A stretch of DNA of 64,000 nt from an uncultured Verrucomicrobiae bacterium. GTDB taxonomy: Bacteria > Verrucomicrobiota > Verrucomicrobiia > Limisphaerales > UBA11358. The notes under the pieces were generated by a model. The model did not search any database, was not told the origin of the DNA, and saw only the letters and a program-made list of their open reading frames with translations. Of the stretch, positions 4,541-55,722 are shown in pieces (the stretch's first letter is position 1; each line of letters starts with the position of its first letter). The position numbers and the translations under genes were made by a program. The stretch is taken from the NCBI GenBank assembly GCA_963762585.1, contig CAVXLF010000008.1:80010-144009 (forward strand), read 5' to 3'.

Positions 4541-4568
4541 GTACAAATCTGGCCGATGATTAAATTTT

Positions 4569-10393: not shown

Positions 10394-11854
10394 CTACTTC
10401 GCTTTTTCCACCACGAGCATTTCGACGGGCTCATGAGCAGGGACCAGTTCGAGGCCGAGTTGATCCAACAGAGCCTGTTTCAGCCCGTCAACGTTGCGGT
10501 TCGCCTTGTCGGTGTCATCCCATTTTACATCCATGTCGAATCCCCCCGCCAAACCGGTCCGGTCAACCACCGGTGTTCCCAGATACAATTCCAAAAAATA
10601 AGTCAGGGCTGAGATGGGCTGGTTGACACAAGAATATTCGCCGAATTGCGGGTTGTTATTATGGCCGCCGGTCCGGTTTGATTTCAAACCCGGGGCGTTT
10701 GAATGTTTCACGGTGAGAACCAAAACATTGGTTTCGATCGTCTCAAGCCTGCCGACCAGACCAAATCTTCTTTTTATTTCCGCTTGCAAGGCGGGCGCCG
10801 TCCCGTTCGGCAGATTGGCGATGAAGTCATATCTTTCTTGCGGCAGTTCCGTGGCAATAACCATCCGAGCCTGAGTGGCATAGGCTGCTTCCAGCATATC
10901 AATGATCCTGGCGCTTATTCCTAAAACCCTGCCGTTGTTAGCTGCCCATCCACCTCCGCCGGATTTAAGAAATTTGGCGGGCAAAATAGTGATTTGAGGG
11001 GAAGCGTGTTCCAGCACCTTGACGTCCGGGTGTGGAACCTCCCAGGAATATTTCCAGTGATCGTGAATTTCTTTGACGGTGACGATGGTGGTTCCAGCGG
11101 CGAGCAGGACGCTGACGCCGATGACGATTGCCGTTTTTGCTTTGGTCCAGGCCATAATTTTCAATGCTCCTTTGATGAGGGTTAAGGTTGAAGTCGAAGC
11201 CGCCGCGCCTTTGGCCAGCGCCACGGCGGTCACGGATTTGGCCAGCGTCGCGGGCACCGCCTGGACGGAATTTGCGGAAATCGCCCCGGCCAGGATGGCC
11301 GTGGTCGAACTCACGCCGCGTTTCGCGAAAAAATTCCGCAATTTTTCCAAGGCCCGGCTGACGCGCTTTTGCGCCGAGTTTTCCGCCAGCCCCAGGAACT
11401 TCCCCACTTCGGCCATGCTTTTGTTTTGAAAATACCGCAACACCAGCGCGTCACGCTCGCTCGTGCCCAGACCGGCCATCGCCTCATCCAGTTGCGGTGA
11501 TAATTCACGCCAGAGGGCGTCGTTGACGGATTCTTCGAGCTGGGATTGCATGAACGCCTCCTGTTCGCGACGGATGCGGCGCGTTTCCGCCCGTTGCAGA
11601 TTGGCCGCTGTCAGCCGCGCCGTGTGGTAAAGCCAGCCGGGCAAAACGGTCTTGCGCCCGAGCGTCCCGGCCTTGCGCGCCAAAATGACAAACACGGCCT
11701 GCGTGATGTCCTGCGCGTGCTGCGCATTGGCCGTGTGCCGCAGCGCCACGGAGTGGACGAGGGCAATGTGCCGCTGCACCAGCGCGGCGAAGGCTTCCTC
11801 GGAACCGTTCCGGGCGAATTGTTCCAGCAACCGGGCATCAGGCACATCGGTCAT
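10394..11854 (-). CDS. ECF-type sigma-70 family factor fused to a TM segment and a TIGR03435-like C-terminal domain (paralogue 1)
   Basis: Region 2 'FAALVQRHIALVHSVALRH...DITQAVFVILARKA'. Region 4 'LGTSERDALVLRYFQNKSMAEVGKFLGLAENSAQKRVSRALEKLR'. Linker 'STSTLTLIKGALKIMAWTKAKTA'. TM 'IVIGVSVLLAAGTTIVTV'. C-terminal end 'LDQLGLELVPAHEPVEMLVVEKAK'. Confidence 0.8.
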   Translation of the reverse strand: MTDVPDARLLEQFARNGSEEAFAALVQRHIALVHSVALRHTANAQHAQDITQAVFVILARKAGTLGRKTVLPGWLYHTARLTAANLQRAETRRIRREQEAFMQSQLEESVNDALWRELSPQLDEAMAGLGTSERDALVLRYFQNKSMAEVGKFLGLAENSAQKRVSRALEKLRNFFAKRGVSSTTAILAGAISANSVQAVPATLAKSVTAVALAKGAAASTSTLTLIKGALKIMAWTKAKTAIVIGVSVLLAAGTTIVTVKEIHDHWKYSWEVPHPDVKVLEHASPQITILPAKFLKSGGGGWAANNGRVLGISARIIDMLEAAYATQARMVIATELPQERYDFIANLPNGTAPALQAEIKRRFGLVGRLETIETNVLVLTVKHSNAPGLKSNRTGGHNNNPQFGEYSCVNQPISALTYFLELYLGTPVVDRTGLAGGFDMDVKWDDTDKANRNVDGLKQALLDQLGLELVPAHEPVEMLVVEKAK

Positions 11855-11860
11855 TCAACA

Positions 11861-11892
11861 ATTATATGTGCGTCGGCAGCGGAATCTGACAA
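11861..11892 (-). promoter_or_regulatory. putative promoter of sigma paralogue 1 with TATAAT 6 nt from the ATG
   Basis: Gene-sense sequence 'TTGTCAGATTCCGCTGCCGACGCACATATAATTGTTGAATG'. Perfect TATAAT, no Shine-Dalgarno sequence. The TTGTCAGATT element resembles the one upstream of paralogue 4. Confidence 0.4.
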
Positions 11893-11958
11893 GGAATTTT
11901 CAATTTGGGGCGCGTTCGACCACAATCATTTCAATCGGTGTACAAAAAGTGGCGGCTG

Positions 11959-13410
11959 TCATCTGGCCACGACAACCCCTGCTGTGGCGCGTTGCAAGGC
12001 GTTTGGAGGCAGCACTTGGAGCGTTTCATCCACACGCCAGTTTGCAGGGTCAGACTTGTCGAAGCTGCCCATCAGCAGGAATTGATCGGCAATATTCACA
12101 CCCCGGAACTGCCGGGTCTTGTTGTTGAAGACAATATAGTCCGTCGGACCGTGGAAGATGCCGTTCATGTTGTTTAGGGCATCCGGCGAGACGGTTCCGT
12201 AAATGACGAGACTATTCTTGGGGTTAAGCGGGTTGGGACAGACAAAGATGGCTCCCACGTCGCGCCCTTTGCATTTCTTGTTTCCCACCACGATGCCGTC
12301 GTCTTCAAAGAGAATCGGCAACTGGTCGCGCACCCGCCGGAAGAGGCTATGATTTTCCGGCGAGCCGTAGATGTAAATCGTCCGCGTCTGGATGTCCTGT
12401 TCGGTCAACTCACGGTCGCTTTTTATGGTGCGGCCAGGTCCGGTATTCTTGGCGAACATTTTCATAATGCTCTCCAAATAACGATGGGTTGTCTCATCCC
12501 CGTCCGGGTAAGTGTAGATGGCATTGGGAATTTCATGGGCCTTGTTGATTCCATCAGTCAAGATCTGCCGGTTGAATTTCGCCCAGGTTGCCGGAGGCAG
12601 ATGCGCATTGGAGCGCGCGGTGTGGGATTTGATGACGATGGTGGTTGTGCCGGCTGCCAGAATGACGGCGGCGACGGCAACCACCGCCGTTTTTGCTTTG
12701 GTCCATGCCATAATTTTCAATGCTCCTTTGATGAGGGTTAAGGTTGAAGTCGAAGCCGTCACGCCTTTGGCAACCGCCACGGCGGTCACGGATTTTGCCA
12801 GCGCCAGCGGCGCAGCTTGAACGGAGTGGGCGGAAATCGCCCCGGCGATGATGGCCGTGGTCGAACTCACGCCGCGCCGGGAAAAATAACGGTGCAGCTT
12901 CTCCAGCGCGCGATGCACCCGGCTTTGGGCCGCCGCTTCCGTGACCTGTAATGCCGCTGCAACTTCGCGCAGGCTTTTGTCCTTGAAAAATCGCAGCACC
13001 ACGGCCTCGCGGTCCTTGTTCCCAAGCCGCGCCATCGCCTCGTCCAGCAGCGGTGAGAGTTGATGCCAGACTGAATCGCCGGTGGATTCCTGGAATGTGG
13101 ATTGCATATAAGCCTCCTGTTCGCGCCATTGCCGCCGCCGTTCCCCGCGGAGAAAACTCAAGGCCGTCAACCGCGTTGTTTCATAGAGCCAGGCATCGAG
13201 GATGGTGTCCGGGCGCAAGCCGGCGGCTTTGCGCGCGAGGATGACAAAGACCGCCTGCGTGATTTCCTCGGCGTGGGCGGCAATCCCGGCATGGCGGAGC
13301 GCCGCCGAATAAACCAAGTTGACATGGCGCCGGACCAATTCGGCAAAGGCTTCCTCCGAGCCTTGCCGCTGGTAATCCCGCAACAGGTCCATGTCGCGCA
13401 CATCGGGCAT
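11959..13410 (-). CDS. ECF-type sigma-70 family factor fused to a TM segment and an unrecognised C-terminal domain (paralogue 2)
   Basis: 'FAELVRRHVNLVYSAALRH', 'LGNKDREAVVLRFFKDKSLREVAAALQVTEAAAQSRVHRALEKL', 'STSTLTLIKGALKIMAWTKAKTAVVAVAAVILAAGTTTIVI'. About 210 aa follow with no motif I recognise. Confidence 0.75.
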   Translation of the reverse strand: MPDVRDMDLLRDYQRQGSEEAFAELVRRHVNLVYSAALRHAGIAAHAEEITQAVFVILARKAAGLRPDTILDAWLYETTRLTALSFLRGERRRQWREQEAYMQSTFQESTGDSVWHQLSPLLDEAMARLGNKDREAVVLRFFKDKSLREVAAALQVTEAAAQSRVHRALEKLHRYFSRRGVSSTTAIIAGAISAHSVQAAPLALAKSVTAVAVAKGVTASTSTLTLIKGALKIMAWTKAKTAVVAVAAVILAAGTTTIVIKSHTARSNAHLPPATWAKFNRQILTDGINKAHEIPNAIYTYPDGDETTHRYLESIMKMFAKNTGPGRTIKSDRELTEQDIQTRTIYIYGSPENHSLFRRVRDQLPILFEDDGIVVGNKKCKGRDVGAIFVCPNPLNPKNSLVIYGTVSPDALNNMNGIFHGPTDYIVFNNKTRQFRGVNIADQFLLMGSFDKSDPANWRVDETLQVLPPNALQRATAGVVVAR

Positions 13411-13500
13411 CTGACTATTTATTGCCGATGGGACCGGAAATCAGGCACTTAATTTTTTTATTTTTTTACCGCCGCGCCGGGAAACCGGAAACAAAACATT

Positions 13501-15000
13501 TTACTTCGCCTTTTCGACCACCAACATTTCGATGGGTTCGCGGCTGGGAACAAGCTCAAGGCCGAGCTGGTCGAGGACTACCTGCCTCAAACCGTCAGGA
13601 TTGGTGAAATAGTAATGTCCGGTGACATCCCATTTCATTTCGTCATCCCATGTGAGATCAACGTCGAAACGACCGGCAAGCCCGGTTCGGTTGACGACTG
13701 GAACCTGTAAATAATATTGAAGATCGTAGATCAGGTAATCAATGAGACCATCGGTGCGGCTCAAATGGCCAATGCCTTCACTGGACGTGGAGCTTCCGGC
13801 TTTAGAGGACGTTGGTTTCAAGCCGGGCGCATTGTGCCGCTTCACCGTCAGCAGCAAAACATCGGTTTCCCGCATCTCGCGCCGGCACGTGATTCCGAAC
13901 TTTTGTTTTATCATTTTCTGCAAGGCCTCTCTTGGACGCTGGGGAACACTGGTGATAAAATCAAAATCGCCCTGCGGCAGTGGCGTCAAAGCAAGAACGC
14001 GACATGGGCTGACGTTATAAGCTTTGGCCAAAAGCGATTCAAACGGCTGATAAACCCCAATGCTTTTCCCCTGCATCTCGTCAAAATCCGCCGCTTCGCG
14101 GGTGAATCTGGTTGGGCGTATGGAAACTGCCGGTTGCGCACTTATCAGTTCCGCATAAAAGTCAGTTCCGGTGATGTTTTTCCAGATGGATTCCTCGCGA
14201 TAATGTGAAACCACCTTGACGGTCAGGGTAGTCGTTCCGGCTCCTGCAAGAGCCACGGCGGCGATCACAATTGCAGATTTCATTTTTGTCCATGCCATAA
14301 TTTTCAGCACTCCTTTCGCTAGTGTCAGGGTTGAGGTGGTTCCGACGGTTCCCTTGGCAACGGCCACGGAAGCCACGGAAGCCGTCAGGCCCGCAGGCGC
14401 CGCCTGGGCGCCATGGGCCGAAATCGTTGCGAGCAGGACCGCCGACGGCACGGCGAATCCCTGGCGAGCGAAGATCAGCCGCAGCTTTTCCAACGCGCGC
14501 GAGACGCGCACCTTGGCGGCGTCCTCGCTCACGCCCAACGTCGCCGCCACTTCCCGGTGGCTTTTGTCCTGGAAAAAGCGGACCAGAACAGCCTCGCGGT
14601 CCTTCCGGGGAAGTTTGTCGAGCGCGTCATTGAGATGCGGCACGATTTGTTCCCAAACCGATGCCGTGTCGTCCGGTCGAAGAATGTTTTCCATCATGAC
14701 TGCCTCCTGTTCGCGGCGCTGGTGGCGGATTTGTTCGCGCGCCACATTGCTGAAGGCAAATCGCGTGGCCCGGAAAAGCCAGCCGGAGAGGACGGCGCCG
14801 CGCGGGATGCGGTCCGCCTTTTGCGCCAGCGCGATGAACACCGCCTGGGTCACCTCCTCCGCCGTGTGTGGATTGCCGGCCTGCCGCAGGGCCGCGTGAT
14901 AGACCAGCCCGGCGTAACGGTCCACGAGCGCGCGAAACGCCTCCTCGGAGTTTCGGGTCGCGTATTCGCGGAGCAATTGCCAGTCGTCCATCGTGTTCAT
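13501..15000 (-). CDS. ECF-type sigma-70 family factor fused to a TM segment and a TIGR03435-like C-terminal domain (paralogue 3)
   Basis: 'FRALVDRYAGLVYHAALRQ', 'LPRKDREAVLVRFFQDKSHREVAATLGVSEDAAKVRVSRALEKLR', 'LKIMAWTKMKSAIVIAAVALAGAGTTTLTV'. C-terminal end 'LDQLGLELVPSREPIEMLVVEKAK'. Confidence 0.8.
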   Translation of the reverse strand: MNTMDDWQLLREYATRNSEEAFRALVDRYAGLVYHAALRQAGNPHTAEEVTQAVFIALAQKADRIPRGAVLSGWLFRATRFAFSNVAREQIRHQRREQEAVMMENILRPDDTASVWEQIVPHLNDALDKLPRKDREAVLVRFFQDKSHREVAATLGVSEDAAKVRVSRALEKLRLIFARQGFAVPSAVLLATISAHGAQAAPAGLTASVASVAVAKGTVGTTSTLTLAKGVLKIMAWTKMKSAIVIAAVALAGAGTTTLTVKVVSHYREESIWKNITGTDFYAELISAQPAVSIRPTRFTREAADFDEMQGKSIGVYQPFESLLAKAYNVSPCRVLALTPLPQGDFDFITSVPQRPREALQKMIKQKFGITCRREMRETDVLLLTVKRHNAPGLKPTSSKAGSSTSSEGIGHLSRTDGLIDYLIYDLQYYLQVPVVNRTGLAGRFDVDLTWDDEMKWDVTGHYYFTNPDGLRQVVLDQLGLELVPSREPIEMLVVEKAK

Positions 15001-15075
15001 CCGTTCTGCTTATAAACAGCCGCCGGATGAAAAAGGTAACAAGAAATTGTGCGGATGGAAATTCGCGACCAATGC

Positions 15076-15110
15076 AAAACGTGATAATGTCACGCCTCAC
15101 GTTTCACGAT
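15076..15110. repeat. short TCACG-type heptamer element / small hairpin
   Basis: 'AAACGTGATAATGTCACGCCTCACGTTTCACGAT' contains units TCACGCC TCACGTT TCACGAT. AAACGTGA pairs with TCACGTTT. This is the same unit family as the repeats at 19151 and 19728. Confidence 0.5.
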
Positions 15111-15120
15111 CTCAACAGGT

Positions 15121-15681
15121 TCAAGCGGCTTGTTCCAAAACGTGAATCTCGAACACGCAACGTTTGCCATCGCGCAGGACGGATTCCTTAAGTTCCACCT
15201 TGACCTTCTTTTGCAGCAGCGTTTCCCAAGTGTGCTTTTGCCAGCCCAGGGAGCAATTGCAGACGACTTGCGGGGTGTGATGTTCACGGCTGTTCAGCGG
15301 GCAGAAGCAGTCGGTCCGTTCATCGGACGCCATCGTGATGAGGCCCTTGTCCCAATCGTAGGTGATGTTGTCGCCGGACACGCCTTTTTTGACGGCTTGA
15401 CGGAACCCTTCGAGGTCGCTGCGGGATTTCTTAAGCCATTCATCGCCCAGGCCTGAACAATAAGCACCCAATTCAAACAAGGTTTCGTTCAATGTCTTTT
15501 CGTCCATCCGGCGGGAAAGAATTCCCAACAGTTTGGCGTAGCGTTGTTTGACGAACCGGAGGCGCCAGTCGTCGGGCGCCTTGGTCTCGGCGCCGGGAGC
15601 AGCATCGGGAACAATCGTACCGACAGCCGCGCAGGCACAGACGGCGCAGGCGCAATTTTTAAGAAATTCTTTTCGGTTCAT
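15121..15681 (-). CDS. hypothetical Cys-rich protein
   Basis: 186-aa ORF. N-terminus 'MNRKEFLKNCACAVCACAAVG' (Tat-like context but only one Arg). C-terminal Cys cluster 'TDCFCPLNSREHHTPQVVCNCSLGW'. Confidence 0.5.
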   Translation of the reverse strand: MNRKEFLKNCACAVCACAAVGTIVPDAAPGAETKAPDDWRLRFVKQRYAKLLGILSRRMDEKTLNETLFELGAYCSGLGDEWLKKSRSDLEGFRQAVKKGVSGDNITYDWDKGLITMASDERTDCFCPLNSREHHTPQVVCNCSLGWQKHTWETLLQKKVKVELKESVLRDGKRCVFEIHVLEQAA

Positions 15682-15697
15682 AACAGGTTGGGGCTGG

Positions 15698-16117
15698 TTA
15701 ATTCGCCAGCTTGATCGCGGCGAGCTTCTTGACCACTGCCAGATCTTTCGATGCTTTCACTTCGAGGCGGACACCGGTTCCTTCGGCATACCGTTTGGCT
15801 TCGTTGATGATCTTGAGGACGCGTGGCGGAAGTTTGCTTTGCCGCGCAGCCTGCACCGCCTTGTCACCGAGAGCGAACGACACCCGGAAGCAACCCGGAC
15901 ACGGAGAAAGATAAATGATGTTCCGCTGCTCGCGCTTCAGGCGCAGCGACCAGCCCGCCTTGGGCGAGTAAGAATTCCATTCCTGGCCGGCGACACCGCA
16001 CTCATCCGCCAGATCAGCTATCAGTTGATTCCAGAGAACCTTGGCCGGACCAAGCGCAGCGGTCAGTTCGCCATCGGTTGGTTGCTTTGCGTGGCCGATA
16101 AATGCGTTCGGAGACAT
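15698..16117 (-). CDS. DUF3788-like protein
   Basis: Start at 'MSPNAFIGHAKQPTDGELTAALGPAKVLWNQLIADL'. 'WNSYSPKAGWSLRLKREQRNIIYLSPCPGCFRVSFALGDKAV' resembles DUF3788 as I remember the family. Confidence 0.55.
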   Translation of the reverse strand: MSPNAFIGHAKQPTDGELTAALGPAKVLWNQLIADLADECGVAGQEWNSYSPKAGWSLRLKREQRNIIYLSPCPGCFRVSFALGDKAVQAARQSKLPPRVLKIINEAKRYAEGTGVRLEVKASKDLAVVKKLAAIKLAN

Positions 16118-16160
16118 GGAATCCAGGCTATTGCTTGAGATGATTGGTTTTCGTTTCCAT

Positions 16161-17684
16161 TTATGGCACCGCCGCAACCTGCTGCTGCGACTGGTAAAGC
16201 AATGCGACTTCATTGCTGGAAAGCGCGCGGTTCCACATCATGGGCTCGTCAATCAGGCCGCGAAAGGATGAACCCAGGTCATCCTCCGTCAAATTGGAAC
16301 GGTTGCAACCAATCACCAGGTTGAAATTGTTGGCTCCCACCCGCCCCGGCTGTTCCCAACGCATGCTGGCTTGAGGCTGGCCATCGACGTAGAGCCATTC
16401 CTCGTTCCCATCACAGGTGGTGACAATCTGATGCCATTGCCCGTCGGCCACCTTGGTCTTCGACAAAATGAAGTGTGTTCCCGGCCCGATCTCGATGCTC
16501 GCCAGGCCGCGCCAATTGTTTTTCTGATAATCGCCCGCAACACTGAGGGCGAAGCCCAGGGTGTAGGATTTGTCGAAAATGCGCCGCCACTTGGCATCCG
16601 TGTAGGCGGTCTTGATCCAGGCTGCCAGGGTCAGTTGTTTGGGATTCAGCGACTTGTTGTTCGCGATCACAATCTCGTCGCCGTCGGAGGTGAATTCATA
16701 CGCCCCGCCCCGCCGGCCATCGGCCGTCCAGCGTACCCCGGCGGCCACGCCATGGTTTTCCTGGCCGCTGCCGTCGGTGATTTGGCCACCCTTGATTTTG
16801 CCGCTGCTGTCCGAAATCACGCCGTGGATCGCCTCGTCCTGGTCGAAGGTCATGTCCAGCACCAGCCCCTCGCGCAGGCTTTGCGCCGTGACGGGCGCAT
16901 GGGCCCGGGCATGTTTGATTTTTGCCGTGGAAACGGAGACGACAACAATGGCGAGAATGACCGCCGCGATGATGATGGTGGTTTTTTTCATAAGCATGGT
17001 TTTGATCAGGGTGGATGCGAGGCTGAAAGCGCTCGAACCCGCCGCCCCGGCGAGCGCCGCCGTGCTCACGGTCGCCGCCAGGCCCGCCGGCGCCGCCTGG
17101 ACGGCATTGGCGGCAATCATCGAAACCATCGCGGTGGAGGAAGCAACCATGCCCCGGCGGACAAAATGGGATCGAAGCTTTTCCACCGCCCGGCTGACGC
17201 GTTTTTGGGCCGCATCCTCATTGCTGCCCAACGCCTCACCAATGGCGCGGAGGTCGCGATGTTCGAAAAAGCGCAGGACAATCGCCGCGCGATCGCGGGC
17301 GTCCAGCTGGTTGATGGCGTCGTCCAAAATGGGAGCAATCTGCTCAAAGCTGGTCTCGGCACAGTCCGATAGTGTGTTCATTTCAGCGGCCTCTCTTTCA
17401 CGGTGTTGCCGGCGGCGCTCGTTTCGCATGAGCGTGGTGGCCACATGCCACGTGCGCCGGTGCAGCCAGCCGCCGAGCATGACATCCTGGGAAAGCGTCC
17501 CTGCCAGCCGCGCCAGATCCGCGAACACCGTCTGCGCCACATCTTCGGCCCGGTGCGTGTCCCCATTGACCAGCCGAACGGCTGTCGAATAGACCAGATT
17601 GATGTAGCTCGCGACCAGTTCGCGAAACGCCTGTTCCGAACCGTTGGCGACATAGTCTGCAAGCAATGTCCGAGGTTCCGTCAT
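16161..17684 (-). CDS. ECF-type sigma-70 family factor fused to a TM segment and a LamG (Laminin_G_3 / concanavalin-A-like) domain (paralogue 4)
   Basis: 'FRELVASYINLVYSTAVRL', 'LDARDRAAIVLRFFEHRDLRAIGEALGSNEDAAQKRVSRAVEKLR'. TM 'TTIIIAAVILAIVVVSV'. LamG pattern 'LTLAAWIK...DGQWHQIVTTCDGNEEWLYVDGQ...FRGLIDEPMMWNRALSSNEVALLY'. Confidence 0.85.
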   Translation of the reverse strand: MTEPRTLLADYVANGSEQAFRELVASYINLVYSTAVRLVNGDTHRAEDVAQTVFADLARLAGTLSQDVMLGGWLHRRTWHVATTLMRNERRRQHREREAAEMNTLSDCAETSFEQIAPILDDAINQLDARDRAAIVLRFFEHRDLRAIGEALGSNEDAAQKRVSRAVEKLRSHFVRRGMVASSTAMVSMIAANAVQAAPAGLAATVSTAALAGAAGSSAFSLASTLIKTMLMKKTTIIIAAVILAIVVVSVSTAKIKHARAHAPVTAQSLREGLVLDMTFDQDEAIHGVISDSSGKIKGGQITDGSGQENHGVAAGVRWTADGRRGGAYEFTSDGDEIVIANNKSLNPKQLTLAAWIKTAYTDAKWRRIFDKSYTLGFALSVAGDYQKNNWRGLASIEIGPGTHFILSKTKVADGQWHQIVTTCDGNEEWLYVDGQPQASMRWEQPGRVGANNFNLVIGCNRSNLTEDDLGSSFRGLIDEPMMWNRALSSNEVALLYQSQQQVAAVP

Positions 17685-17693
17685 TGATCATCA

Positions 17694-17724
17694 GTAAAGC
17701 GCCGCCGGCCGGCAAATCCGACAA
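17694..17724 (-). promoter_or_regulatory. 31-nt promoter-like element upstream of sigma paralogue 4 (copy A)
   Basis: Gene-sense 'TTGTCGGATTTGCCGGCCGGCGGCGCTTTAC' ends 9 nt before the ATG at 17684. It matches 33587-33617 at 30 of 31 positions. Confidence 0.55.
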
Positions 17725-17865
17725 AAATAACCGGCGGATATTTCCCGAGTTATAAGGCGCCCGGAAGACCAAATGCAGCGGGCTAATCACGGCGCAGGCA
17801 GTTCGGCGGCGGCTTCGTTTCCTTTTTGCAAAAATCCGCCGATATCAACCCTGGCCGGGCGCAAA

Positions 17866-19131: not shown

Positions 19132-19150
19132 TGACCTGGGCTAATTGATC

Positions 19151-19199
19151 CGTGATGCGTAAAACGTGAAACGTGATCCGTAATGTGTGACGTGTAAAT
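19151..19199. repeat. seven CGTGAAA-type heptamers, distal flank of the four-helix-bundle gene
   Basis: Units: CGTGATG CGTAAAA CGTGAAA CGTGATC CGTAATG TGTGACG TGTAAAT. Confidence 0.7.
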
Positions 19200-19727: not shown

Positions 19728-19755
19728 TCTCACGTTTCACGCATCACGTTTCACG
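19728..19755. repeat. four TTTCACG-type heptamers, proximal flank of the four-helix-bundle gene, inverted relative to 19151-19199
   Basis: Units TCTCACG TTTCACG CATCACG TTTCACG. The reverse complement is CGTGAAA CGTGATG CGTGAAA CGTGAGA. It matches units 1-3 of the other flank at 19 of 21 positions. Confidence 0.7.
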
Positions 19756-19757
19756 CC

Positions 19758-20996
19758 TCATTCACTCCTCAACGCCTCCACCGGGTCCATCCGCGCCGCG
19801 CGCCAGGCCGGCAGGAAACCGGAAATCACCCCGGTCAGCAACGACACCAGCAGGGACAGGGCGACAATGATCCCGGACAAGGATGCCGGAAACAGCCAGG
19901 CCGAAACCGCGAGCGTGACCAGCCAGGCGATGCCCAGACCGATCAACCCGCCCAACAGGCAGATGCAGGCGGCCTCGACCAGAAAATGCAGCAGGATGTT
20001 GCGGCGTTTGGCCCCAATGGCCTTGCGCACGCCGATCTCGCGTGTCCGCTCGACCACCGAGACGAACATGATGTTCATGATGCCGATGCCGCCAACGAAC
20101 AGCGCCAGGCTGGTGACGCACATACCGATGATGGCAATGGTGCGGGTTTCGCGGTGGAACATGTCCACGAACTGGTCCTGCTGGTTGATGGCAAAGTTGT
20201 CCAGTTCATCGGGCTTCAGGTGGCGGACGTGGCGCATGGCCTGGCGCAATTCCTCCCGGGCCTCGTCCAGTTGCGCCAGCCCGCCGGCCTTGATGTTGAT
20301 CTGGTCAATGCTGGGTGCGTTCCAGATGTCCGCCAAAAATTCCCGGATGGGAATAATCACCCGGTTGTCCAGGCTCCAACCGAGGATGGACCCCTGTTTA
20401 TCGAGCACGCCAATGACCTCAAAGGACTGGTCACTGACCTTGATCCGCGCCCCGATGGGCGGTTCTCCGCGAAAAAGGTTGGTGGCGACATCGCTGCCGA
20501 TGACGCAGACCGGCTGTCCGCCCTCGGCATCCGCGGCGGTCAAAAACCGTCCCCGGGCCACGGTCACACCGCTGGTTTCCAGATAAGCCTCGGTGGTGCC
20601 GATGATTTGAACGAGGTTGGCGCTGCGCGTCCGGTATTTCACCGCTTCAAAGTCGTCGACCTCGGGCGCCACGGCGGCGGCCAGGGCCAGTTGCCGGGAC
20701 AACGCCTCGGCCTCCGGGAGCCGGATGGGCGGGCGCCGCCGCTGGAGTTTAATCCAGTTGTCGTAGGAATCGTTGCTCCACCAGGAACTGCGCGAAACAT
20801 AAAACACATCCGCGCCCAGTGCCGAGATGCTTTTCATGAACGCCTGGTCCAATCCATGAATGGTCGCGCCCATGAGGGTGACGGTGAGGATGCCGATGAC
20901 GATGCCGAGGGTGGCGAGCATCGAGCGCATTTTATTCGCGCGGATGGCATCCCACGAAATGCCCAGGCCCTCGTGAATTTCGCTGAGAAATTTCAT
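19758..20996 (-). CDS. ABC transporter permease, MacB/FtsX family (first permease)
   Basis: Start at 'MKFLSEIHEGLGISWDAIRANKMRS'. C-terminus 'ERTREIGVRKAIGAKRRNILLHFLVEAACI...GFLPAWRAARMDPVEALRSE'. The upstream ORF extension lies inside a repeat. Confidence 0.9.
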   Translation of the reverse strand: MKFLSEIHEGLGISWDAIRANKMRSMLATLGIVIGILTVTLMGATIHGLDQAFMKSISALGADVFYVSRSSWWSNDSYDNWIKLQRRRPPIRLPEAEALSRQLALAAAVAPEVDDFEAVKYRTRSANLVQIIGTTEAYLETSGVTVARGRFLTAADAEGGQPVCVIGSDVATNLFRGEPPIGARIKVSDQSFEVIGVLDKQGSILGWSLDNRVIIPIREFLADIWNAPSIDQINIKAGGLAQLDEAREELRQAMRHVRHLKPDELDNFAINQQDQFVDMFHRETRTIAIIGMCVTSLALFVGGIGIMNIMFVSVVERTREIGVRKAIGAKRRNILLHFLVEAACICLLGGLIGLGIAWLVTLAVSAWLFPASLSGIIVALSLLVSLLTGVISGFLPAWRAARMDPVEALRSE

Positions 20997-21004
20997 CCGA
21001 GGAA

Positions 21005-21098
21005 AACATCGAACATCCAACATCCAACATCCAATGCCCAATGCGTGGTGGTTGGGCCTGAGTTCGTTGGATGTTCGGCGTTCGATGTTGGTTGTTGG
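21005..21098. repeat. about 95-nt imperfect palindrome built from AACATCC heptamers, between the ATPase and permease genes
   Basis: Left arm: AACATCG AACATCC AACATCC AACATCC AATGCCC. Right arm reverse complement: GAACATC CAACAAC CAACATC GAACGCC GAACATC CAACGAA. Confidence 0.75.
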
Positions 21099-21102
21099 AT
21101 GT

Positions 21103-21789
21103 TCATTTCACCGGTTTCTCGTCGCTGGCGATCAGGCCGTCGCGGATGCGGAGGATGCGGCGCGCCTGCCGGGCAATGTCCTCCTCGTGCGTGACGATGA
21201 TGATGGTGTTGCCTTTGCGTGAAAGATCATCGAACAAGGCCATGATTTCCGCGCCGGTCTTGGAGTCGAGGTTGCCGGTCGGTTCGTCAGCCAGCAGGAT
21301 GGAAGGTTTGTTGACAAGCGCGCGGGCGACGGCGACGCGCTGGCGCTGGCCGCCGGAAAGTTCGTTGGGTTTGTGATGAATGCGATCGGACAGGCCAACC
21401 TGGGCGAGCGCATCGAGCGCGATCTGACGGCGCTCCGCCGCCGGGACGCCGGCGTAAATGAGGGGCAGCTCGACGTTGTGCAGCGCGTTCGAGCGCGCCA
21501 GCAGATTGAAGGTCTGGAACACAAAACCGATCTCGCGGTTGCGGATTTCCGCCAGCTGGTTGTCGTCCATCTCGCTGACCTGGGCGCCGTTGAGTTCGTA
21601 ACCGCCGGAGGTCGGGGTATCGAGACAGCCGATGAGATTCATCAAGGTGGATTTGCCCGAACCGGACGGACCCATGATGGCGACGTATTCGCCGCGCTGG
21701 ATTTCGAGCGACACGTCGCGCAGCGCGTGGACGGTTTCCGCGCTCATCTGGTAGCGCCGCGAAATGTTCTGGAACCGGATGAGTGCCAC
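21103..21789 (-). CDS. ABC transporter ATP-binding protein (MacB/LolD type)
   Basis: Walker A '[12 protein letters not shown]'. Signature '[15 protein letters not shown]'. Walker B '[12 protein letters not shown]'. Confidence 0.95.
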
Positions 21790-33495: not shown

Positions 33496-33586
33496 CGGAG
33501 CGCGGGTCATGCAAACGGCTTCAGCCCGGCCCGGATTCCGTCCCCACCCTCGGATTTCCCATCCTAACCGAAGATTTTTTGATTTA

Positions 33587-33617
33587 TTGTCGGATTTGCC
33601 GGCGGGCGGCGCTTTAC
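33587..33617 (+). promoter_or_regulatory. 31-nt promoter-like element upstream of the GH2 gene (copy B)
   Basis: 'TTGTCGGATTTGCCGGCGGGCGGCGCTTTAC' ends 8 nt before an in-frame ATG at 33626 and 98 nt before the signal-peptide Met at 33716. Confidence 0.55.
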
Positions 33618-33715
33618 AGTTAACCATGAGAAATCATCAAGCCATCGTCCATCTGAACGGCTTTCAACCGCGCAGTCTGTTGCCATCCCAGTCAAAACCA
33701 GCTAATCTACGCCCA

Positions 33716-36613
33716 ATGAAAACCACATCCGCCCGCTTTCTGCTCGTAATCCCCTTTCTGCTCGCCACCGCGGGTCTGAATTTGTCCGCCGCCGACAGCC
33801 AGTCGCCCCGCGAACGGTTGTTGATGGATTCCGGCTGGAAATTTCATCTGGGCAACGAATGGGGCATCGGCCAAAACCTGTCCAAGGCCGCCAACGGCAA
33901 CGGCCCCGCCAGTTCCGCCTTCAGTGATGCAAGCTGGCGCACGGTCAATCTGCCCCATGATTGGGCCATTGAACTGCCGTTTGCCCAGAACGCCGATGGC
34001 TCGCACGGCTACAAAGCCCTGGGCTCTGGTTTTCCCGCCAACAGCGTCGCGTGGTACCGGCGCACGTTTGAATTGCCGAAAGCCGATGCCGGCAAACGAT
34101 TGTCGCTGGAGTTCGACGGCGTGTATCGCAATTGCGACGTCTTTGTGAACGGCTGGTTCATCGGCCATCATGACAGCGGCTACAGCCGGTTCCGCGATGA
34201 CATCACCGATGTGGCCAATTATGGCGGCACCAATGTCGTCGCCGTGAAAGTGGACGCTTCGGATTTCGAGGGCTGGTTTTACGAAGGGGCCGGCATTTAC
34301 CGGCATGTATGGCTGGTGAAAGCCAGCCCGGTGGCCATTGCGCCTGATGGCATTTTTGTTTTCAGCCGGTTCAAAAACAACGTGCCGGAAGGGCCGGCGG
34401 AAATTCACATTCAAACCCGGCTCGCCAACGCCCAGGCCACGCCGGCCCAGGTCGAAGTGAAATACAGCATCATTGATCCCCACGGCGACATCGTCGCCAC
34501 GCTGCGCCAGGCCGGGCAAATCGAGGCGACAGCCAGGCTCGACCTCGAACAAACCAGGCCGATCAGCACGCCCATCCTGTGGTCGCCGGAATCCCCCCAA
34601 CTCTACAAGCTGGTCACCACCGTTGAAAGCAGCGGGCAGGTGGTGGACCGGCAGGAAACCGAATTTGGCATCCGCACCGTCGCTTTTGATCCGCAAAAAG
34701 GATTTTTACTGAACGGACAGCCCTACCAGATCAAGGGCACCTGCAATCACCAGGACATGGCGGGCGTCGGGGTGGCAGTGCCGGACGCGTTGCAATATTT
34801 TCGCGTGAAGAAATTGAAGGAGATGGGCTGCAACGCGGATCGCACCTCGCACAATGCGCCCACGCCGGAATTGCTCGACGCCTGCGACCGGCTCGGCCTG
34901 CTGGTCTTGGACGAAAATCGCCTGGTCGGCAGCGACCCGGCCAATCTGGCGCGCCTGCAGGACCAAATCCAGCGGGACCGGAATCACCCGAGCGTTTTTG
35001 CCTGGTCGCTGGGAAATGAAGAATGGAACGCCCAGGGGACGGCGCAGGGGGCGGCGGTCATTCAAACCATGCAGAACCTCGCGCACGATCTGGACCCCAC
35101 CCGCGAATGCACCGCGGCCATCAACAGCTCGTACGGCGACTCGGGCTTCATCACCGTCCTCGACGTCAAAGGCTTCAATTACAACCTGGGCAGCATGGAC
35201 GATTATCACGCCAAACATCTGGACTCGAAATATCTGGGAACCGAAACCGCCAGCACGGTGTCGACCCGCGGCATCTACACCAATGACACCGCCAAAGGTT
35301 ACGTAAGCGCCTACGACCTTGTCCCGCTCACCGGTGTGCCCACTCCCCCTACCTGGACTTCGACCGCGGAAGAATGGTGGTCCTTTTATGACGCCCGGCC
35401 CTGGTCGTCCGGCGGTTTTGCCTGGACGGGATTTGATTATCGCGGGGAACCGACGCCCTATTGGTGGCCCTGCATCAATTCGCACTTCGGCATCATGGAC
35501 ATGTGCGGGTTTCCCAAGGACAACTATTATTATTATCAGGCCTGGTGGACGGACAAACCGGTGCTGCATCTGCTGCCGCACTGGAACTGGCCCGGCCGGG
35601 AAGGCAGGAACATTGACGTGTGGTGCTACAGCAATTGCAAGGAAGTGGAATTGTTTTTGAACGGCCAAAGTCTCGGCCGGAAAACGGTGAAAAAAGATTC
35701 ACACCTGGAATGGCAGGTCCCCTACGCGCCCGGCACGCTCTCAGCCAAAGGTTACACGGACGGCAAAGTGATTGCGGAAACGAAGGTGGAAACCACCGGC
35801 GCACCCGCCGCCGTTCAATTGACGCCCGATCGCTCAAACCTCAGCGCCGATGGCGAGGACGTCAGCGCCGTCACCGTCTCCGTGACCGACTCCGAAGGGC
35901 GCGTCGTGCCGGTCGCCTCAAATCTGATTCATTTTGCCGTGGACGGCCCGGGCCGGATTCTGGGCGTGGGCAACGGCGACCCCAGCTGCCACGAGCCGGA
36001 CGTGTATCTCACGCGGCCGCCCGTTCACGCCACCGGCTTGAACGATGGCTGGCACTGGAAATTGTTGCCGGACGTGCGCAACGAAAATTTGCCGGAATTG
36101 AAACCGGACTTTGACGATTCAAGCTGGGCTTCCGCCAATCCCCAATCCGAGAGCGGCCCGTTGAAGGAGAACGAACAGGCCGTGTTCCGCGCGAAAATCA
36201 CCGTGACCCAGGAGGAACTGGCCGCGCCGGCGGTTCAATTGCATTTCGGCCGGATTGATGACGACGGCTGGATTTATGTGAACGGCCAGAAAGTGGGCGA
36301 GTCGCATGACTGGCAGGCTACGCCCACATTTGACGTGAAACCGGTTTTGCATCCGGGCGAGAATACCATCGTCGTGGCGGTGGTGAACCGTTACGGCGGC
36401 GGCGGCATCAATCTGGGAGTCGAACTGGATACTCCTTCAACCCCGGAACCCGCCGATTGGCAGCGCAGTGCCTTTAACGGCCTGGCACAGGTTTTGGTGC
36501 AATCCACCAAAGCATCGGGTGAAATCAAATTGACCGCCCAAGCGGAAGGATTGTCGCCGGCAACGGCGGTGATTCAGTCCCTGCCCGGCACCCTGCGCCC
36601 CAGCGTGCCGTGA
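33716..36613 (+). CDS. glycoside hydrolase family 2 (beta-galactosidase-like), secreted
   Basis: Signal 'MKTTSARFLLVIPFLLATAGLNLSAA'. 'WRTVNLPHDWAIE', 'FDGVYRNCDVFVNGW', 'GTCNHQDMAGVGVAVPD', 'RTSHNAPTPELLDACDRLGLLVLDE', 'NHPSVFAWSLGNEEW'. An alternative in-frame start exists at 33626. Confidence 0.85.
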   Translation: MKTTSARFLLVIPFLLATAGLNLSAADSQSPRERLLMDSGWKFHLGNEWGIGQNLSKAANGNGPASSAFSDASWRTVNLPHDWAIELPFAQNADGSHGYKALGSGFPANSVAWYRRTFELPKADAGKRLSLEFDGVYRNCDVFVNGWFIGHHDSGYSRFRDDITDVANYGGTNVVAVKVDASDFEGWFYEGAGIYRHVWLVKASPVAIAPDGIFVFSRFKNNVPEGPAEIHIQTRLANAQATPAQVEVKYSIIDPHGDIVATLRQAGQIEATARLDLEQTRPISTPILWSPESPQLYKLVTTVESSGQVVDRQETEFGIRTVAFDPQKGFLLNGQPYQIKGTCNHQDMAGVGVAVPDALQYFRVKKLKEMGCNADRTSHNAPTPELLDACDRLGLLVLDENRLVGSDPANLARLQDQIQRDRNHPSVFAWSLGNEEWNAQGTAQGAAVIQTMQNLAHDLDPTRECTAAINSSYGDSGFITVLDVKGFNYNLGSMDDYHAKHLDSKYLGTETASTVSTRGIYTNDTAKGYVSAYDLVPLTGVPTPPTWTSTAEEWWSFYDARPWSSGGFAWTGFDYRGEPTPYWWPCINSHFGIMDMCGFPKDNYYYYQAWWTDKPVLHLLPHWNWPGREGRNIDVWCYSNCKEVELFLNGQSLGRKTVKKDSHLEWQVPYAPGTLSAKGYTDGKVIAETKVETTGAPAAVQLTPDRSNLSADGEDVSAVTVSVTDSEGRVVPVASNLIHFAVDGPGRILGVGNGDPSCHEPDVYLTRPPVHATGLNDGWHWKLLPDVRNENLPELKPDFDDSSWASANPQSESGPLKENEQAVFRAKITVTQEELAAPAVQLHFGRIDDDGWIYVNGQKVGESHDWQATPTFDVKPVLHPGENTIVVAVVNRYGGGGINLGVELDTPSTPEPADWQRSAFNGLAQVLVQSTKASGEIKLTAQAEGLSPATAVIQSLPGTLRPSVP

Positions 36614-52711: not shown

Positions 52712-55681
52712 CTAGGGTGCAGTTTGCATCACACGGTAGAAGCACTGCGAATTGGTACCTACAGCGTTTGAGGTTGTTGTCACAGCACTGTTGGCGAGGA
52801 TCGGGCTGCCCAGGTTGACCCAGTTTGTGGAAGCCAAATTGGTCACGGATTGCAGTTGATAAGTCTGCCCACCAACCGTGTTCCAACTGAGGGTGACCGT
52901 GCCATTGGCCAGCCGGACCGGGGTTCGAAAAGCCAGTGTCGGCATGAGCGAAGGCACGGTGAGCCGGAAAATGACGCCGTTGTTCATCGGGCCGCCATTT
53001 TGCGTGGTGCCGTACAAATTATCGTCCGTGCCTTCCACCAATACCGCCTCGGGATTTGCGCCATTGGTTCCGTTAAATGAAATCAAGATCGTCAGCGCAC
53101 CGTTGGTGGTGATTTGGAACACCGTGCCGTCATCATAGGTACCACCATACGCCGTCGTGCCATACAAATTGCCGTCGCCGCCCTGGATCAACCCGGCAGA
53201 GGGAAAGCTTCCATCGCTGCCGCCGGCGAATGAGTGAAGGGTGGCGAGAATACCATTGGTGGTGATTTTGAAGACCGTGCCGTCACTGAACTGGCCGGCG
53301 CCGGTGGTGGTGCCATACAAATTGCCGTCGCCAGCCTGGATCACTCCCGCATAAGGGAATCCCCCGTCAGAGCCGCCAGAGAACGAATAAAGGGTGGCAA
53401 GGGTGCCATTGGTGCTCATTTTAAACACAGTTCCGCTGCTGCTGGCGCCGCCCTCCGAGGTGGTGCCGTAGAGACTGCCGTCAACGCCCTGCACCAGCCG
53501 GGCTTCGGGAGAACCGCCATCCGCACCGCCGGTAAATGAGTACAGGTTGCTTACGGAGCCGTCGGGGGTGATTCTAAAGACCGTGCCCCAGCCGTTTGAG
53601 ACGCCACCCTCAAGGGTGGTGCCGTATAAATTGCCATCAACGCCTTGCATCAGCTCCGCATAGGGAAAACTGCCATCCGCCACCCCCGTGAACGAATGAA
53701 GAGCGCCAAATGTGCCGCCGGAAGTGATGCTGAAAATGGTTCCCCAGCCGCTGTTACCCCCCACCGAGGCCGTGCCGTACAAATTACCATCCGCTCCCAG
53801 CGCCAGCCCGGCCAACGGATAGCCGCCGTCGCCATCGCCGGTAAAGGCGTAAAGCGTGGCGGGCGTGCCGTTGGTGGTCAACTGGAAGATGGTGCCATAA
53901 CCGTTGGAACCACCATTTTGGGTTGTGCCGTAAAGAGTGCCGTTGGTATCCAGCATCAGCGCGTTGGGGCCGGCGCCGTCAGAGCCACCAGTGAATGAGT
54001 ACAGGTTGGTCAGGGTGATTTTTAGCAGCGTCAGAACCGCACCCGCGCTCGACGCATGTCCGAGGGCATTGCTGACAATGATAGCATACGTTCCCGCATT
54101 GACGGAAGAGGCATTGACAATGGTCAGGAGGGTGGTGGCGGTGCCGATGATATTGGTGGTGTCCGTAAGATTGGTTCCGTTAAGCTGCCACTGATAGAAC
54201 AGCGGAAAGTTTCCAACCGCCCCCGCCCGAAACGTCGCAGTTGCGCCGGACAGGACGGTGAGGTTCGTGGGCTGGACCGTGATGATGGGCGGGGAAGAAG
54301 TCACGGTCAGGAACGCGGGCGCGCTGGTGACCGCTCCCATGCTGTTGCTCACGATCACGGAGTAAAGCCCGGCATTGTCGGCGGTGACATTGGTGAAGGT
54401 CAACACCCGGGTGCTGCTCCCGAACAGATTGCCGGCGTCGGTCAGGTTGGTGCCGGATTCCTGCCACTGATAAGTCAGAGGAAAACTGCCAAACGTGGCA
54501 ACACTGAAATTCACCGTCTGGCCGAGGAACGCCGTCTGGGGCCTGGGCTGGCGGGTGATTTGCAGCGTTTGATTGGTAATGGTCAGCACATAGGTCTCAC
54601 CATAAGTACTGGCGCCACCAAACGCCGTCGTGCCGTACAAATTGCCATTCGTGCCTTGTACGGGCGCAGCCAGAGGATAGCCCGTGACACCGGCAAACGT
54701 ACCCAGCGTGGTGAACGTGCCATCGGACGTGATGGAGAATACCGTGCCACTCCCGCTCGCACCGCCCTGCTCGGTTGTCCCATAAAGATTGCCGTCCAAA
54801 CCCAGTGTCAGTCCACCGTAAGGATTGGCCCCGTTCGAATTGTTGAACGAAAGCAGGTTCGTGAGCACGCCGTCCGGGGTCATTTTGAAAACACTACCAT
54901 TCCCATAAGTTCCACCAGCGGTCGTAGTGCCGTAAAAATTCCCGTCCACGTCCTGGACCAGGCCGCCCAGTTGAAACCCACCAGAAGACGGAAGCGAAAC
55001 CAGTGTCACCAGGCTGCCATTGGGAGTCATCCGAAAAATCGTGCCTTGGCTGTAGGCACCCCCTGCGGAACTGATGCCGTAGAAGTTGCCATCGATACCC
55101 TGGACCAAACCGGCATACGGGTTGGCGCCATTCACCTGATTGAACGATGCCAGGCTGGTCAGCGCTCCGGCCGGAGTCATTCTGAAAATGGTGCCGGCTC
55201 CAGAAGCCCCCCCGAGAGCGGTGGTGCCGTAAAAGTTGCCGTCCTGGCCCTGGACCAGCGCGCCCGTCGGCTCGCTGCCGCCGATGCCACTGACGGAGGC
55301 AAGCGTTGACAGCGCGCCGCCGGTTGTCATCCGGAACACCGTGCCCGCGGCGGTGGTGCCGTACAAGTTACCATCGCCACCCAATGTCAAACCGGAGATG
55401 GGATTGCCGCCATTGCCGCCGTTGAAGGAAACCAAAAAGGTCACCGTCCCGCCCGGGGTCATGCGGAAGACCGTGCCATAGTAAGTATACGCACCGCCTT
55501 GTTCCGTGGTCCCGTAGAAGTTGCCATCTCCAGCCGGCACGAGCGGCCCATACGGATATTCGCCCGAGGTGGTGGCACTGGTAAACGAATAGAGCGGAGA
55601 CAAGGTGAACGTCGCGTGCGCGGACAACAACGCAAGCGAACAAATCGCAACCGTCAAGGGGAGGAATCGAATCGGTTTCAT
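52712..55681 (-). CDS. secreted Gloeo_Verruco (GloVer) repeat protein with central Ig-like domains
   Basis: Start at 'MKPIRFLPLTVAICSLALLSAHA' preceded by AAGGAAAC. More than 15 repeats of the type 'G.NLYGTT..GG..G.GTVF+.T..G....L.SF'. Three Ig-like units '...PLTYQWQ..GTNLTD...'. Confidence 0.85.
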   Translation of the reverse strand: MKPIRFLPLTVAICSLALLSAHATFTLSPLYSFTSATTSGEYPYGPLVPAGDGNFYGTTEQGGAYTYYGTVFRMTPGGTVTFLVSFNGGNGGNPISGLTLGGDGNLYGTTAAGTVFRMTTGGALSTLASVSGIGGSEPTGALVQGQDGNFYGTTALGGASGAGTIFRMTPAGALTSLASFNQVNGANPYAGLVQGIDGNFYGISSAGGAYSQGTIFRMTPNGSLVTLVSLPSSGGFQLGGLVQDVDGNFYGTTTAGGTYGNGSVFKMTPDGVLTNLLSFNNSNGANPYGGLTLGLDGNLYGTTEQGGASGSGTVFSITSDGTFTTLGTFAGVTGYPLAAPVQGTNGNLYGTTAFGGASTYGETYVLTITNQTLQITRQPRPQTAFLGQTVNFSVATFGSFPLTYQWQESGTNLTDAGNLFGSSTRVLTFTNVTADNAGLYSVIVSNSMGAVTSAPAFLTVTSSPPIITVQPTNLTVLSGATATFRAGAVGNFPLFYQWQLNGTNLTDTTNIIGTATTLLTIVNASSVNAGTYAIIVSNALGHASSAGAVLTLLKITLTNLYSFTGGSDGAGPNALMLDTNGTLYGTTQNGGSNGYGTIFQLTTNGTPATLYAFTGDGDGGYPLAGLALGADGNLYGTASVGGNSGWGTIFSITSGGTFGALHSFTGVADGSFPYAELMQGVDGNLYGTTLEGGVSNGWGTVFRITPDGSVSNLYSFTGGADGGSPEARLVQGVDGSLYGTTSEGGASSSGTVFKMSTNGTLATLYSFSGGSDGGFPYAGVIQAGDGNLYGTTTGAGQFSDGTVFKITTNGILATLHSFAGGSDGSFPSAGLIQGGDGNLYGTTAYGGTYDDGTVFQITTNGALTILISFNGTNGANPEAVLVEGTDDNLYGTTQNGGPMNNGVIFRLTVPSLMPTLAFRTPVRLANGTVTLSWNTVGGQTYQLQSVTNLASTNWVNLGSPILANSAVTTTSNAVGTNSQCFYRVMQTAP

Positions 55682-55722
55682 GGTTTCCTTTTTGGCTTCA
55701 CTTTGCAGGTGTCCGGTTGAGG

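Follow-up and report, generated by a model that had tools for sequence, protein, structure and literature searches.

The window, which is the whole 64,000-nucleotide (64-kb) stretch of DNA that was analyzed, contains two copies of a 31-nt element. One of them lies before the gene of an ECF-type sigma factor that is fused to a LamG domain, and the other before the gene of a GH2 beta-galactosidase. The features of the two loci are as follows.

16161..17684, minus strand: gene of the LamG-fused sigma factor (Pfam, TIGR02937, translation, AlphaFold2, Foldseek)
17694..17724, minus strand: putative ECF-type promoter motif of the sigma-LamG gene (block conservation in L011-L014, L036 and L032); first, -35-like block TGTCGGATTT at 17714-17723, second, -10-like block GGCGCTTTAC at 17694-17703
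15698..16117, minus strand: DUF3788 gene directly downstream of the sigma gene (Pfam)
13501-15000, 11959-13410 and 10394-11854, minus strand: three paralogous ECF sigma genes, each with a membrane segment and a C-terminal domain (repeats, Pfam)
33587..33617, plus strand: P1, the motif copy about 100 nt before the GH2 start (kept in L033, L034 and L039); first block at 33588-33597, second block at 33608-33617
33626..33715, plus strand: leader between P1 and GH2, with 30 in-frame codons that are not conserved as coding in other species
33680..33708, plus strand: P2, predicted proximal sigma70-like promoter (TTGCCA, 17 nt, TAATCT, then 7 nt to the ATG at 33716)
33716..36613, plus strand: GH2 beta-galactosidase, GalA-like, with an N-terminal signal peptide (Pfam; P0121)

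Other repeated sequences were also observed in the window. Between the genes of an ABC ATPase and a MacB-type permease, positions 21011-21104 form an inverted repeat of GGATGTT-like units, and similar GGATGTT runs occur before the permease gene in L001 and L037. Inverted GTGAAACGTGA-type repeats (19146-19190 and 19730-19760) flank a small gene of the 23S_rRNA_IVP family, with the same flanks present in L001 and L037.

The sigma-gene copy of the element (17724-17694, minus strand) reads TTGTCGGATTTGCCGGCCGGCGGCGCTTTAC, and the GH2 copy (33587-33617, plus strand) reads TTGTCGGATTTGCCGGCGGGCGGCGCTTTAC. A preliminary description of this DNA had reported the two as near-identical, and re-reading of the sequence confirms that 30 of the 31 positions are equal. 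The T-rich run which it noted 5′ of each copy is present at both, as is the short distance from the end of the motif to an ATG, which amounts to 9 nt at the sigma gene (ATG 17684) and 8 nt at GH2 (ATG 33626). The sole variable position is occupied by G in the sigma copy of ten further contigs of this species (L001-L010), so that the sigma copy there does not differ from the window's GH2 copy. A search allowing up to 3 mismatches finds these two copies only in the 64-kb window, and the same search gives no match in any of 100 dinucleotide-preserving shuffles. The ungapped similarity of the two sites found by the repeat search covers 43 nt (86%; 17685-17727 against 33584-33626) and ends at the start codons. 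Both copies are intergenic, and each is oriented toward its downstream gene.

The element consists of two invariant blocks separated by a variable spacer of 10-11 nt, as is directly seen in about 16 instances. In promoter notation, the motif can be written as TGTCGGA-N15-CGCT in the window and as TGTCGGA-N16-CGCT in variants with the 11-nt spacer, a geometry that agrees with known ECF promoters, the blocks of which are ~15-17 nt apart. The common ECF cores AAC (-35) and CGT (-10) are absent, the blocks reading GGATTT and GGCGCTTTAC instead; group-specific departures from these cores are known, e.g., TGTCACA in ECF41 (PMC3426412). A consensus scan for sigma70-type promoters (TTGACA-like and TATAAT-like hexamers 16-18 nt apart) gives no match around either copy, and the canonical TTGACA-N17-TATAAT occurs elsewhere in this species. 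An RNA element or hairpin was considered and ruled out by the Rfam search, which has no match near either copy, and by the predicted folds, none of which is better than those of shuffled sequence (z from -0.7 to +0.9). The spacer is GC-rich and, in the sigma copy, palindromic (GCCGGCCGGC), and the palindrome is not kept in other species. Across species, the spacer follows the loose consensus GCCGNCSGGY, so that two near-consensus copies need no special cause. Special concerted evolution of the spacer within the genome was also considered and was dropped, the data being thin.

The protein encoded by the sigma gene is composed of a sigma2/sigma4 part (residues ~1-175), an Ala-rich segment, a predicted membrane helix (~236-261), and a LamG/ConA-like domain (~265-500). 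Pfam identifies Sigma70_r2 at residues 23-92, Sigma70_r4_2 at residues 120-170, and no other sigma region, which is the composition of ECF (group 4) sigma factors, i.e., sigma2 and sigma4 only, without region 1.1 or region 3. The TIGR02937 model scores 67.7 bits against a cut-off of 42.9, and Laminin_G_3 is found in the same protein at 6e-22; the architecture itself is a direct observation. In the AlphaFold2 model, the sigma2 domain and a beta-sandwich at 265-500 are predicted with confidence, and the helix 236-261 has the sequence TTIIIAAVILAIVVVSVSTA. The solved structures that Foldseek matches best to the protein are lectin domains of the ConA-like type, among them domain 4 (carbohydrate-binding) of the arabinanase AbnA and the binding fragments (Hc) of clostridial toxins. 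Judged only by this resemblance of fold, the LamG domain plausibly senses carbohydrate. No Cys is present in residues 176-260, which match neither zf-HC2 nor RskA, and the lack of Cys between sigma4 and the membrane helix means that the zinc anti-sigma motif HxxxCxxC is absent.

An attempt to place the protein in a named ECF group failed. None of the NCBIfam subfamily or equivalog models reaches its cut-off for this protein, the main text of the ECF reclassification paper does not mention LamG, laminin or Verrucomicrobia, and text searches of the literature return nothing that joins ECF with LamG, DUF3738 or Verrucomicrobia. The DUF3788 gene directly downstream is probably co-transcribed with the sigma gene from the motif promoter, and a DUF3788 gene is also found near the sigma gene in L012 and L013. 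The identical sigma protein occurs on further metagenome-assembly contigs, some of which look like peat or bog samples by their record names. The names given to the sources of homologs are Verrucomicrobiia, Verrucomicrobiota, and Limisphaerales.

The conservation of the element was followed in sigma orthologs from L011, L012, L013, L014, and L036, which share 90, 79, 76, 72, and 64% protein identity, respectively, with the window protein. All of them are preceded by TTTTTGTCGGAWTT, a 10-nt spacer, GGCGCTTTAC, and then TGRTGATNAATG or a near variant of it, which in L036 is TTATGACAAATG. Among these orthologs, the spacer changes from GCCGGCGGGC to TCAACCGATG, and both blocks and the distance to the ATG stay intact. 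Such a combination of fixed blocks and a free spacer marks a promoter, rather than a repeat or an RNA. Retention of the motif in relatives, which the preliminary description had proposed to check, is thus seen directly before sigma orthologs down to 64% identity, and it is also seen before the GH2 orthologs of three species. In L013, a second copy of the motif was observed within a duplicate of about 140 nt (13873-14053), which extends over the sigma promoter into the first codons of the gene, the sigma ATG being changed to ATA. The duplicate precedes an esterase-like gene, followed by a DUF3788 gene, and looks like a case of the regulon gaining a member via a copy of the sigma gene's own promoter.

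The wider distribution of the motif was examined in about 545 kb of related DNA, in which the two blocks were sought 9-12 nt apart. The sites found there have either 0-1 or at least 4 mismatches in the 20 block positions, with no intermediates, and those with at least 4 correspond to the background. Every good site in this DNA is intergenic and co-oriented with its downstream gene, and none lies inside a gene. Public genomes and metagenome contigs were scanned with the pattern TGTCGGAWTT-N11-GGCGCTTTAC, which covers the spacer-11 variant only and not the 10-nt form of the window. In these public contigs, spacer-11 variants are present in other Verrucomicrobiota (L019, L028, L029, and L032). 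Two tandem copies in L019 are located before a GH30-like enzyme and a secreted repeat protein, the copies in L028 and L029 before prepilin-type proteins, and the copy in L032 before a sigma factor of the same clade, the C-terminal domain of which is not LamG. Matches in L015-L018, L020, L021, L023, L024, L026, L027, L030, and L031 were discarded as chance matches in the coding sequence of Acidobacteria and others.

Two further observations belong to the public contigs. In L019, the two motif copies have in common an upstream flank of about 110 nt with 88% identity (2906-3066 against 4640-4800), and the leader after one of the copies (4530-4600) contains a degenerate 3′ end of the upstream gene (...SADSQFFRLRK). 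In two contigs from soil, the same two blocks are found with an 11-nt spacer that differs between the contigs (L022 1006-1036, L025 1108-1138). Both sites lie 2 nt before the ATG of an unrelated, sigma-like protein of 178 aa, which gives a weak Sigma70_r2 match only.

The question of which sigma factor reads the motif is addressed by the paralogs. The region 10394-17684 was observed to hold four tandem ECF sigma paralogs, with LamG, DUF3738, an unknown domain, and DUF3738 at their C-termini; DUF3738 is therefore found in two of the three paralogs of the LamG-fused protein, which are treated as context, outside the predicted regulon. An Ala-rich segment after sigma4 (ANAVQAAPAGLA...) is conserved among the four paralogs even at the DNA level (repeat family D6), and it might be an autoinhibitory or membrane-associated element. 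The upstream regions of the paralogous genes contain a related first block, the best two being TTGTCAGATT and GTGCCTGATTT, and their second blocks differ. In the paralogs of the window, L036, and L037, the same arrangement is repeated, i.e., the first block, a GC-rich spacer, the second block, and an ATG within 0-10 nt. The first block TGTCnGATT is common to them, and the second blocks are, e.g., GGCGATATAC, GGTTGTTTAA, and CGCACATATAAT.

In ECF sigma factors, recognition of the -35 element falls to sigma4 and that of the -10 element to sigma2; these factors usually autoregulate, and their promoters are routinely predicted from autoregulation (PMC7826278). The protein sequences follow the same division. 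The sigma4.2 helix SEDAAQKRVSRAVEKLR is conserved across all paralogs, and only proteins encoded behind GGCGCTTTAC have the sigma2 segment WLHRRxxHVA, the non-LamG protein of L032 among them. This specificity for one sigma clade is directly seen. Since the second block co-varies with sigma2, which is the part that reads the -10 element, and since ECF factors autoregulate, the LamG-fused sigma factor most likely reads its own upstream motif and, consequently, the identical motif before GH2 as well.

The first block is shared by the paralogs, and cross-recognition by one of them is thus possible. In a broader form of this scenario, a factor other than the LamG sigma, either a paralogous ECF sigma or a DNA-binding regulator, uses the element as its promoter or operator, and the LamG sigma is merely co-regulated. 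The common TGTCnGATT block of the paralogous sigma genes agrees with such a model, and so does the presence of the same blocks before the unrelated sigma-like gene in L022 and L025. However, the second block tracks the sigma2 sequence of the LamG-sigma clade only, the blocks are neither inverted nor clear direct repeats, and the spacer varies between 10 and 11 nt in a promoter-like manner. A different reader of the element is for these reasons considered unlikely.

The second copy of the motif leads to the GH2 gene. Its product is 100% identical to P0121, a protein of 965 aa that is called a beta-galactosidase by its source and starts at 33716. The gene is flanked by holB and a probable rpoD, the latter assigned by synteny with L033 and L034. 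The closest GH2 homolog is 73% identical (L033), and those of L034 and L039 are 68% identical each. In L033 and L034, the order holB-GH2-rpoD is kept, and the motif is located ~100-150 nt before the signal-peptide ATG. In L039, the GH2 ortholog heads a GH2-GH3-GH95-GH95-GH2 row, and the motif has one mismatch. The blocks of the GH2 copy agree at 20 of 20 positions in the window and L034, and at 19 of 20 in L033 and L039. Before the GH2 homologs of L035 and L038, which are found in other gene contexts, the motif is absent. Because the GH2 copy is kept in species with 68-73% identical GH2 proteins, it is old and under selection; the conservation of its blocks amid a drifting spacer and leader is, as read from the compared sequences, purifying selection.

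These data also bear on the possibility that the GH2 copy is a historical remnant, i.e., a piece of the sigma promoter that was copied or converted before GH2 and has no present regulatory role there. Copying of promoter-plus-start segments does take place in relatives, as indicated by the ~140-nt segment of L013 with its ATG changed to ATA and by the ~110-nt shared flank of L019, and the GH2 copies retain an ATG 8-12 nt after the motif. On the other hand, a remnant without function is difficult to reconcile with blocks that match at 19-20 of 20 positions across species at 68-73% GH2 identity while the spacer and the leader drift, and this explanation is regarded as improbable.

A second GH2-like gene was observed at 55723-60150, which in parts is ~75% identical to the first at the DNA level; the motif is absent upstream of it. 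It adjoins a gene for a large protein (52712-56296) with 153-nt (51-aa) tandem repeats of the GTVF type, and this protein resembles the secreted repeat protein behind one of the L019 motif copies.

The signal-peptide Met of GH2 corresponds to position 33716, and the ATG at 33626 is located in frame, 30 codons upstream. The preliminary description had raised the possibility that translation starts at 33626, which is not borne out, as only in the window and L034 is the reading from this ATG uninterrupted and in phase with GH2 (30 codons in each), and the extension that it would add contains a conserved sigma70-like promoter. All four species retain an ATG at GH2, 8-12 nt behind the motif, and its continuation differs. 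In L033, it opens an out-of-frame ORF of 40 codons with an ATGA overlap with the GH2 start, and in L039, the upstream ATG opens an ORF of 9 codons. The promoter inside the leader, P2, consists of TTGCCA (33680) and TAATCT (33703), and in the four-species alignment exactly the TTG and T-A---T positions are invariant. Given that the frame from 33626 is not conserved and that P2 stands directly before 33716, the latter is most likely the GH2 start. Transcription from P2 would give a leaderless GH2 mRNA. The sequences thus point to two promoters at GH2, most likely a proximal one of the housekeeping type and a distal one of the ECF type. As GH2 has its own sigma70-like promoter, the ECF-type promoter may contribute only an induced component.

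At the sigma gene, the motif is followed by the ATG after 8-9 nt, with no Shine-Dalgarno sequence, and the shortness of this gap without such a sequence implies that the sigma mRNA is leaderless or nearly so. Start regions were counted for 117 called genes of seven related loci (L001, L014, L034, and L036-L039). The hexamer TAnnnT is present 4-10 nt before the start in 17 of these genes (14.5%, against a background of 1.7%), whereas the excess of Shine-Dalgarno-like sequences is slight (14.5% against 9.3%). In this lineage, leaderless mRNAs seem to be common and Shine-Dalgarno sites little used, and a leaderless sigma mRNA is plausible in this setting.

The same frequency of TAnnnT close to the starts could be taken to mean that the element is an ordinary housekeeping promoter of the sigma70 type for leaderless mRNAs, in which TTTACT or TTTACA is a weak -10 element. 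The consensus scan without a sigma70-type match argues against it, however. TTTACT does not have the form TAnnnT, the TTG is located 20 nt before TTTACT, and GH2 already possesses a well-formed sigma70-like promoter further downstream. A housekeeping promoter at the motif is accordingly very improbable. Finally, a dispersed REP- or MITE-like repeat, which the preliminary description had named as the outcome that would overturn its proposal and which the GC-rich spacer, palindromic in the sigma copy, might bring to mind, is largely refuted and has hardly any likelihood left, since the window contains only two copies, the ~16 non-redundant intergenic instances are all co-oriented with their downstream genes, and the element folds no better than shuffles, with a palindrome that is not conserved elsewhere.

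Several known systems resemble parts of the arrangement in which the LamG-fused sigma reads both motif copies. The ECF41 promoter is TGTCACA-N16-CGTC (PMC3426412), and its TGTC...-N15/16-CG.. geometry is similar to that of the window motif. As in the window, ECF41 factors contain sigma2/sigma4 only, a two-block motif is found before the sigma gene and very few targets, and a C-terminal extension replaces a separate anti-sigma factor. The two differ in the blocks, as the window motif has GGATTT in place of an AAC-type -35 and GGCGCTTTAC in place of CGTC, and in the ATG, which in the window follows the motif after only 8-9 nt. Moreover, the ECF41 extension is cytoplasmic and SnoaL-like, whereas that of the window protein crosses the membrane and ends in LamG.

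In the layout of the protein, a likeness is found with ECF52. Its representative SCO4117 from Streptomyces coelicolor combines the sigma factor with a zinc finger, a membrane segment and a Pro-rich region as well as a carbohydrate-binding domain; SCO4117 is autoregulated, and proteolytic release was proposed as its activation (PMC5826349, PMC8999054). Both place a cytoplasmic ECF sigma and an outside domain of the sugar-binding type on one membrane-anchored polypeptide, the outside domain of the window protein being assigned by fold. The window protein, however, has neither the zinc finger nor the Pro-rich region, its outside domain is LamG/ConA-like, and it belongs to Verrucomicrobiota, whereas ECF52 is described as exclusive to Actinobacteria. 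Another membrane-tethered ECF sigma, the cytoplasmic part of which must be freed, is IutY, a fusion of sigma and anti-sigma in Pseudomonas putida that Prc and RseP release (PMC8999054). IutY differs in belonging to the FecI/FecR iron-signalling clade, with a signal coming from an outer-membrane receptor, and no such partner is found near the window gene.

The proposed flow of the signal resembles that of SigI/RsgI in cellulolytic clostridia and of the ECF sigma/anti-sigma pairs of Bacteroides PULs, in which an outside carbohydrate-binding module acts via an alternative sigma factor to turn on genes of secreted glycoside hydrolases and the sigma factor's own gene (PMC6056542, PMC4711584). In those systems, the sensor and the sigma factor are separate proteins, whereas they are fused in the window; SigI, in addition, is not an ECF sigma. 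The window circuit also differs from both in its predicted regulon, which so far comprises one or few genes. By analogy, the window system would be an ordinary ECF autoregulatory circuit with a tiny regulon, the sensor design of which is like that of SigI/RsgI and the Bacteroides pairs, and the protein like ECF52.

The element is accordingly read, with good but not full confidence, as a bipartite promoter that would be recognized by the ECF sigma factor encoded at 16161-17684 and would drive the sigma gene and GH2 in a small circuit. In this model, the first block TGTCGGATTT would act as the -35 element, and the second block GGCGCTTTAC would hold the -10 element. One copy would drive the sigma gene in positive autoregulation, with an mRNA leader of at most ~9 nt, and the other would drive the gene of the secreted GH2 beta-galactosidase, 16 kb away; we infer in this way both the sigma dependence of the two promoters and the position of the transcription start. 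The sigma factor would be tethered by one membrane helix, with the ConA-like (LamG) domain outside. A signal at this domain, plausibly a glycan, might then lead to the release or activation of the cytoplasmic sigma domain, as in fused sigma/anti-sigma proteins. Such activation would probably occur by proteolytic release, as proposed for IutY and ECF52 (PMC8999054, PMC5826349), and the freed sigma domain would increase the transcription of its own operon and of GH2. The essential part of the preliminary proposal, in which a shared ECF promoter places GH2 under the control of the LamG sigma, thus remains probable in view of the conservation of the motif, its lack of REP-like spread, and the clade-specific second block; the GH2 start at 33626, which was part of the same proposal, is given up.

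A more general hypothesis can be put forward tentatively, and its chances are rather below even. The sigma-helix-LamG proteins and the DUF3738 paralogs of Verrucomicrobiota may form an undescribed ECF group of single-polypeptide, trans-membrane glycan sensors without a recognizable anti-sigma domain. Their regulons might grow by copying of the sigma promoter-plus-start cassette before genes of secreted enzymes, and their targets might combine constitutive leaderless promoters of the sigma70 type with inducible promoters of the ECF type. Such cassette copying may have left traces in L013, where the copy retains the 5′ end of the sigma gene, and at GH2, where an ATG persists 8-12 nt behind the motif.

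Verrucomicrobiota are major degraders of polysaccharides in peat and soil. To our knowledge, almost nothing is known about the regulation of their numerous glycoside hydrolases. The present analysis offers a prediction for an uncultured lineage, namely a sugar-responsive circuit of a familiar type, in which a routine ECF regulon would be connected to a somewhat unusual sensor architecture. The proposed wiring is cheaply testable and comprises a single sensor-sigma, a single promoter signature, and a few secreted enzymes, in a lineage that is traceable in peat metatranscriptomes already at hand. A short and highly specific promoter/sigma pair of this kind is also the type that is used for orthogonal switches. 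The circuit would extend a known principle to this lineage, rather than overturn it.
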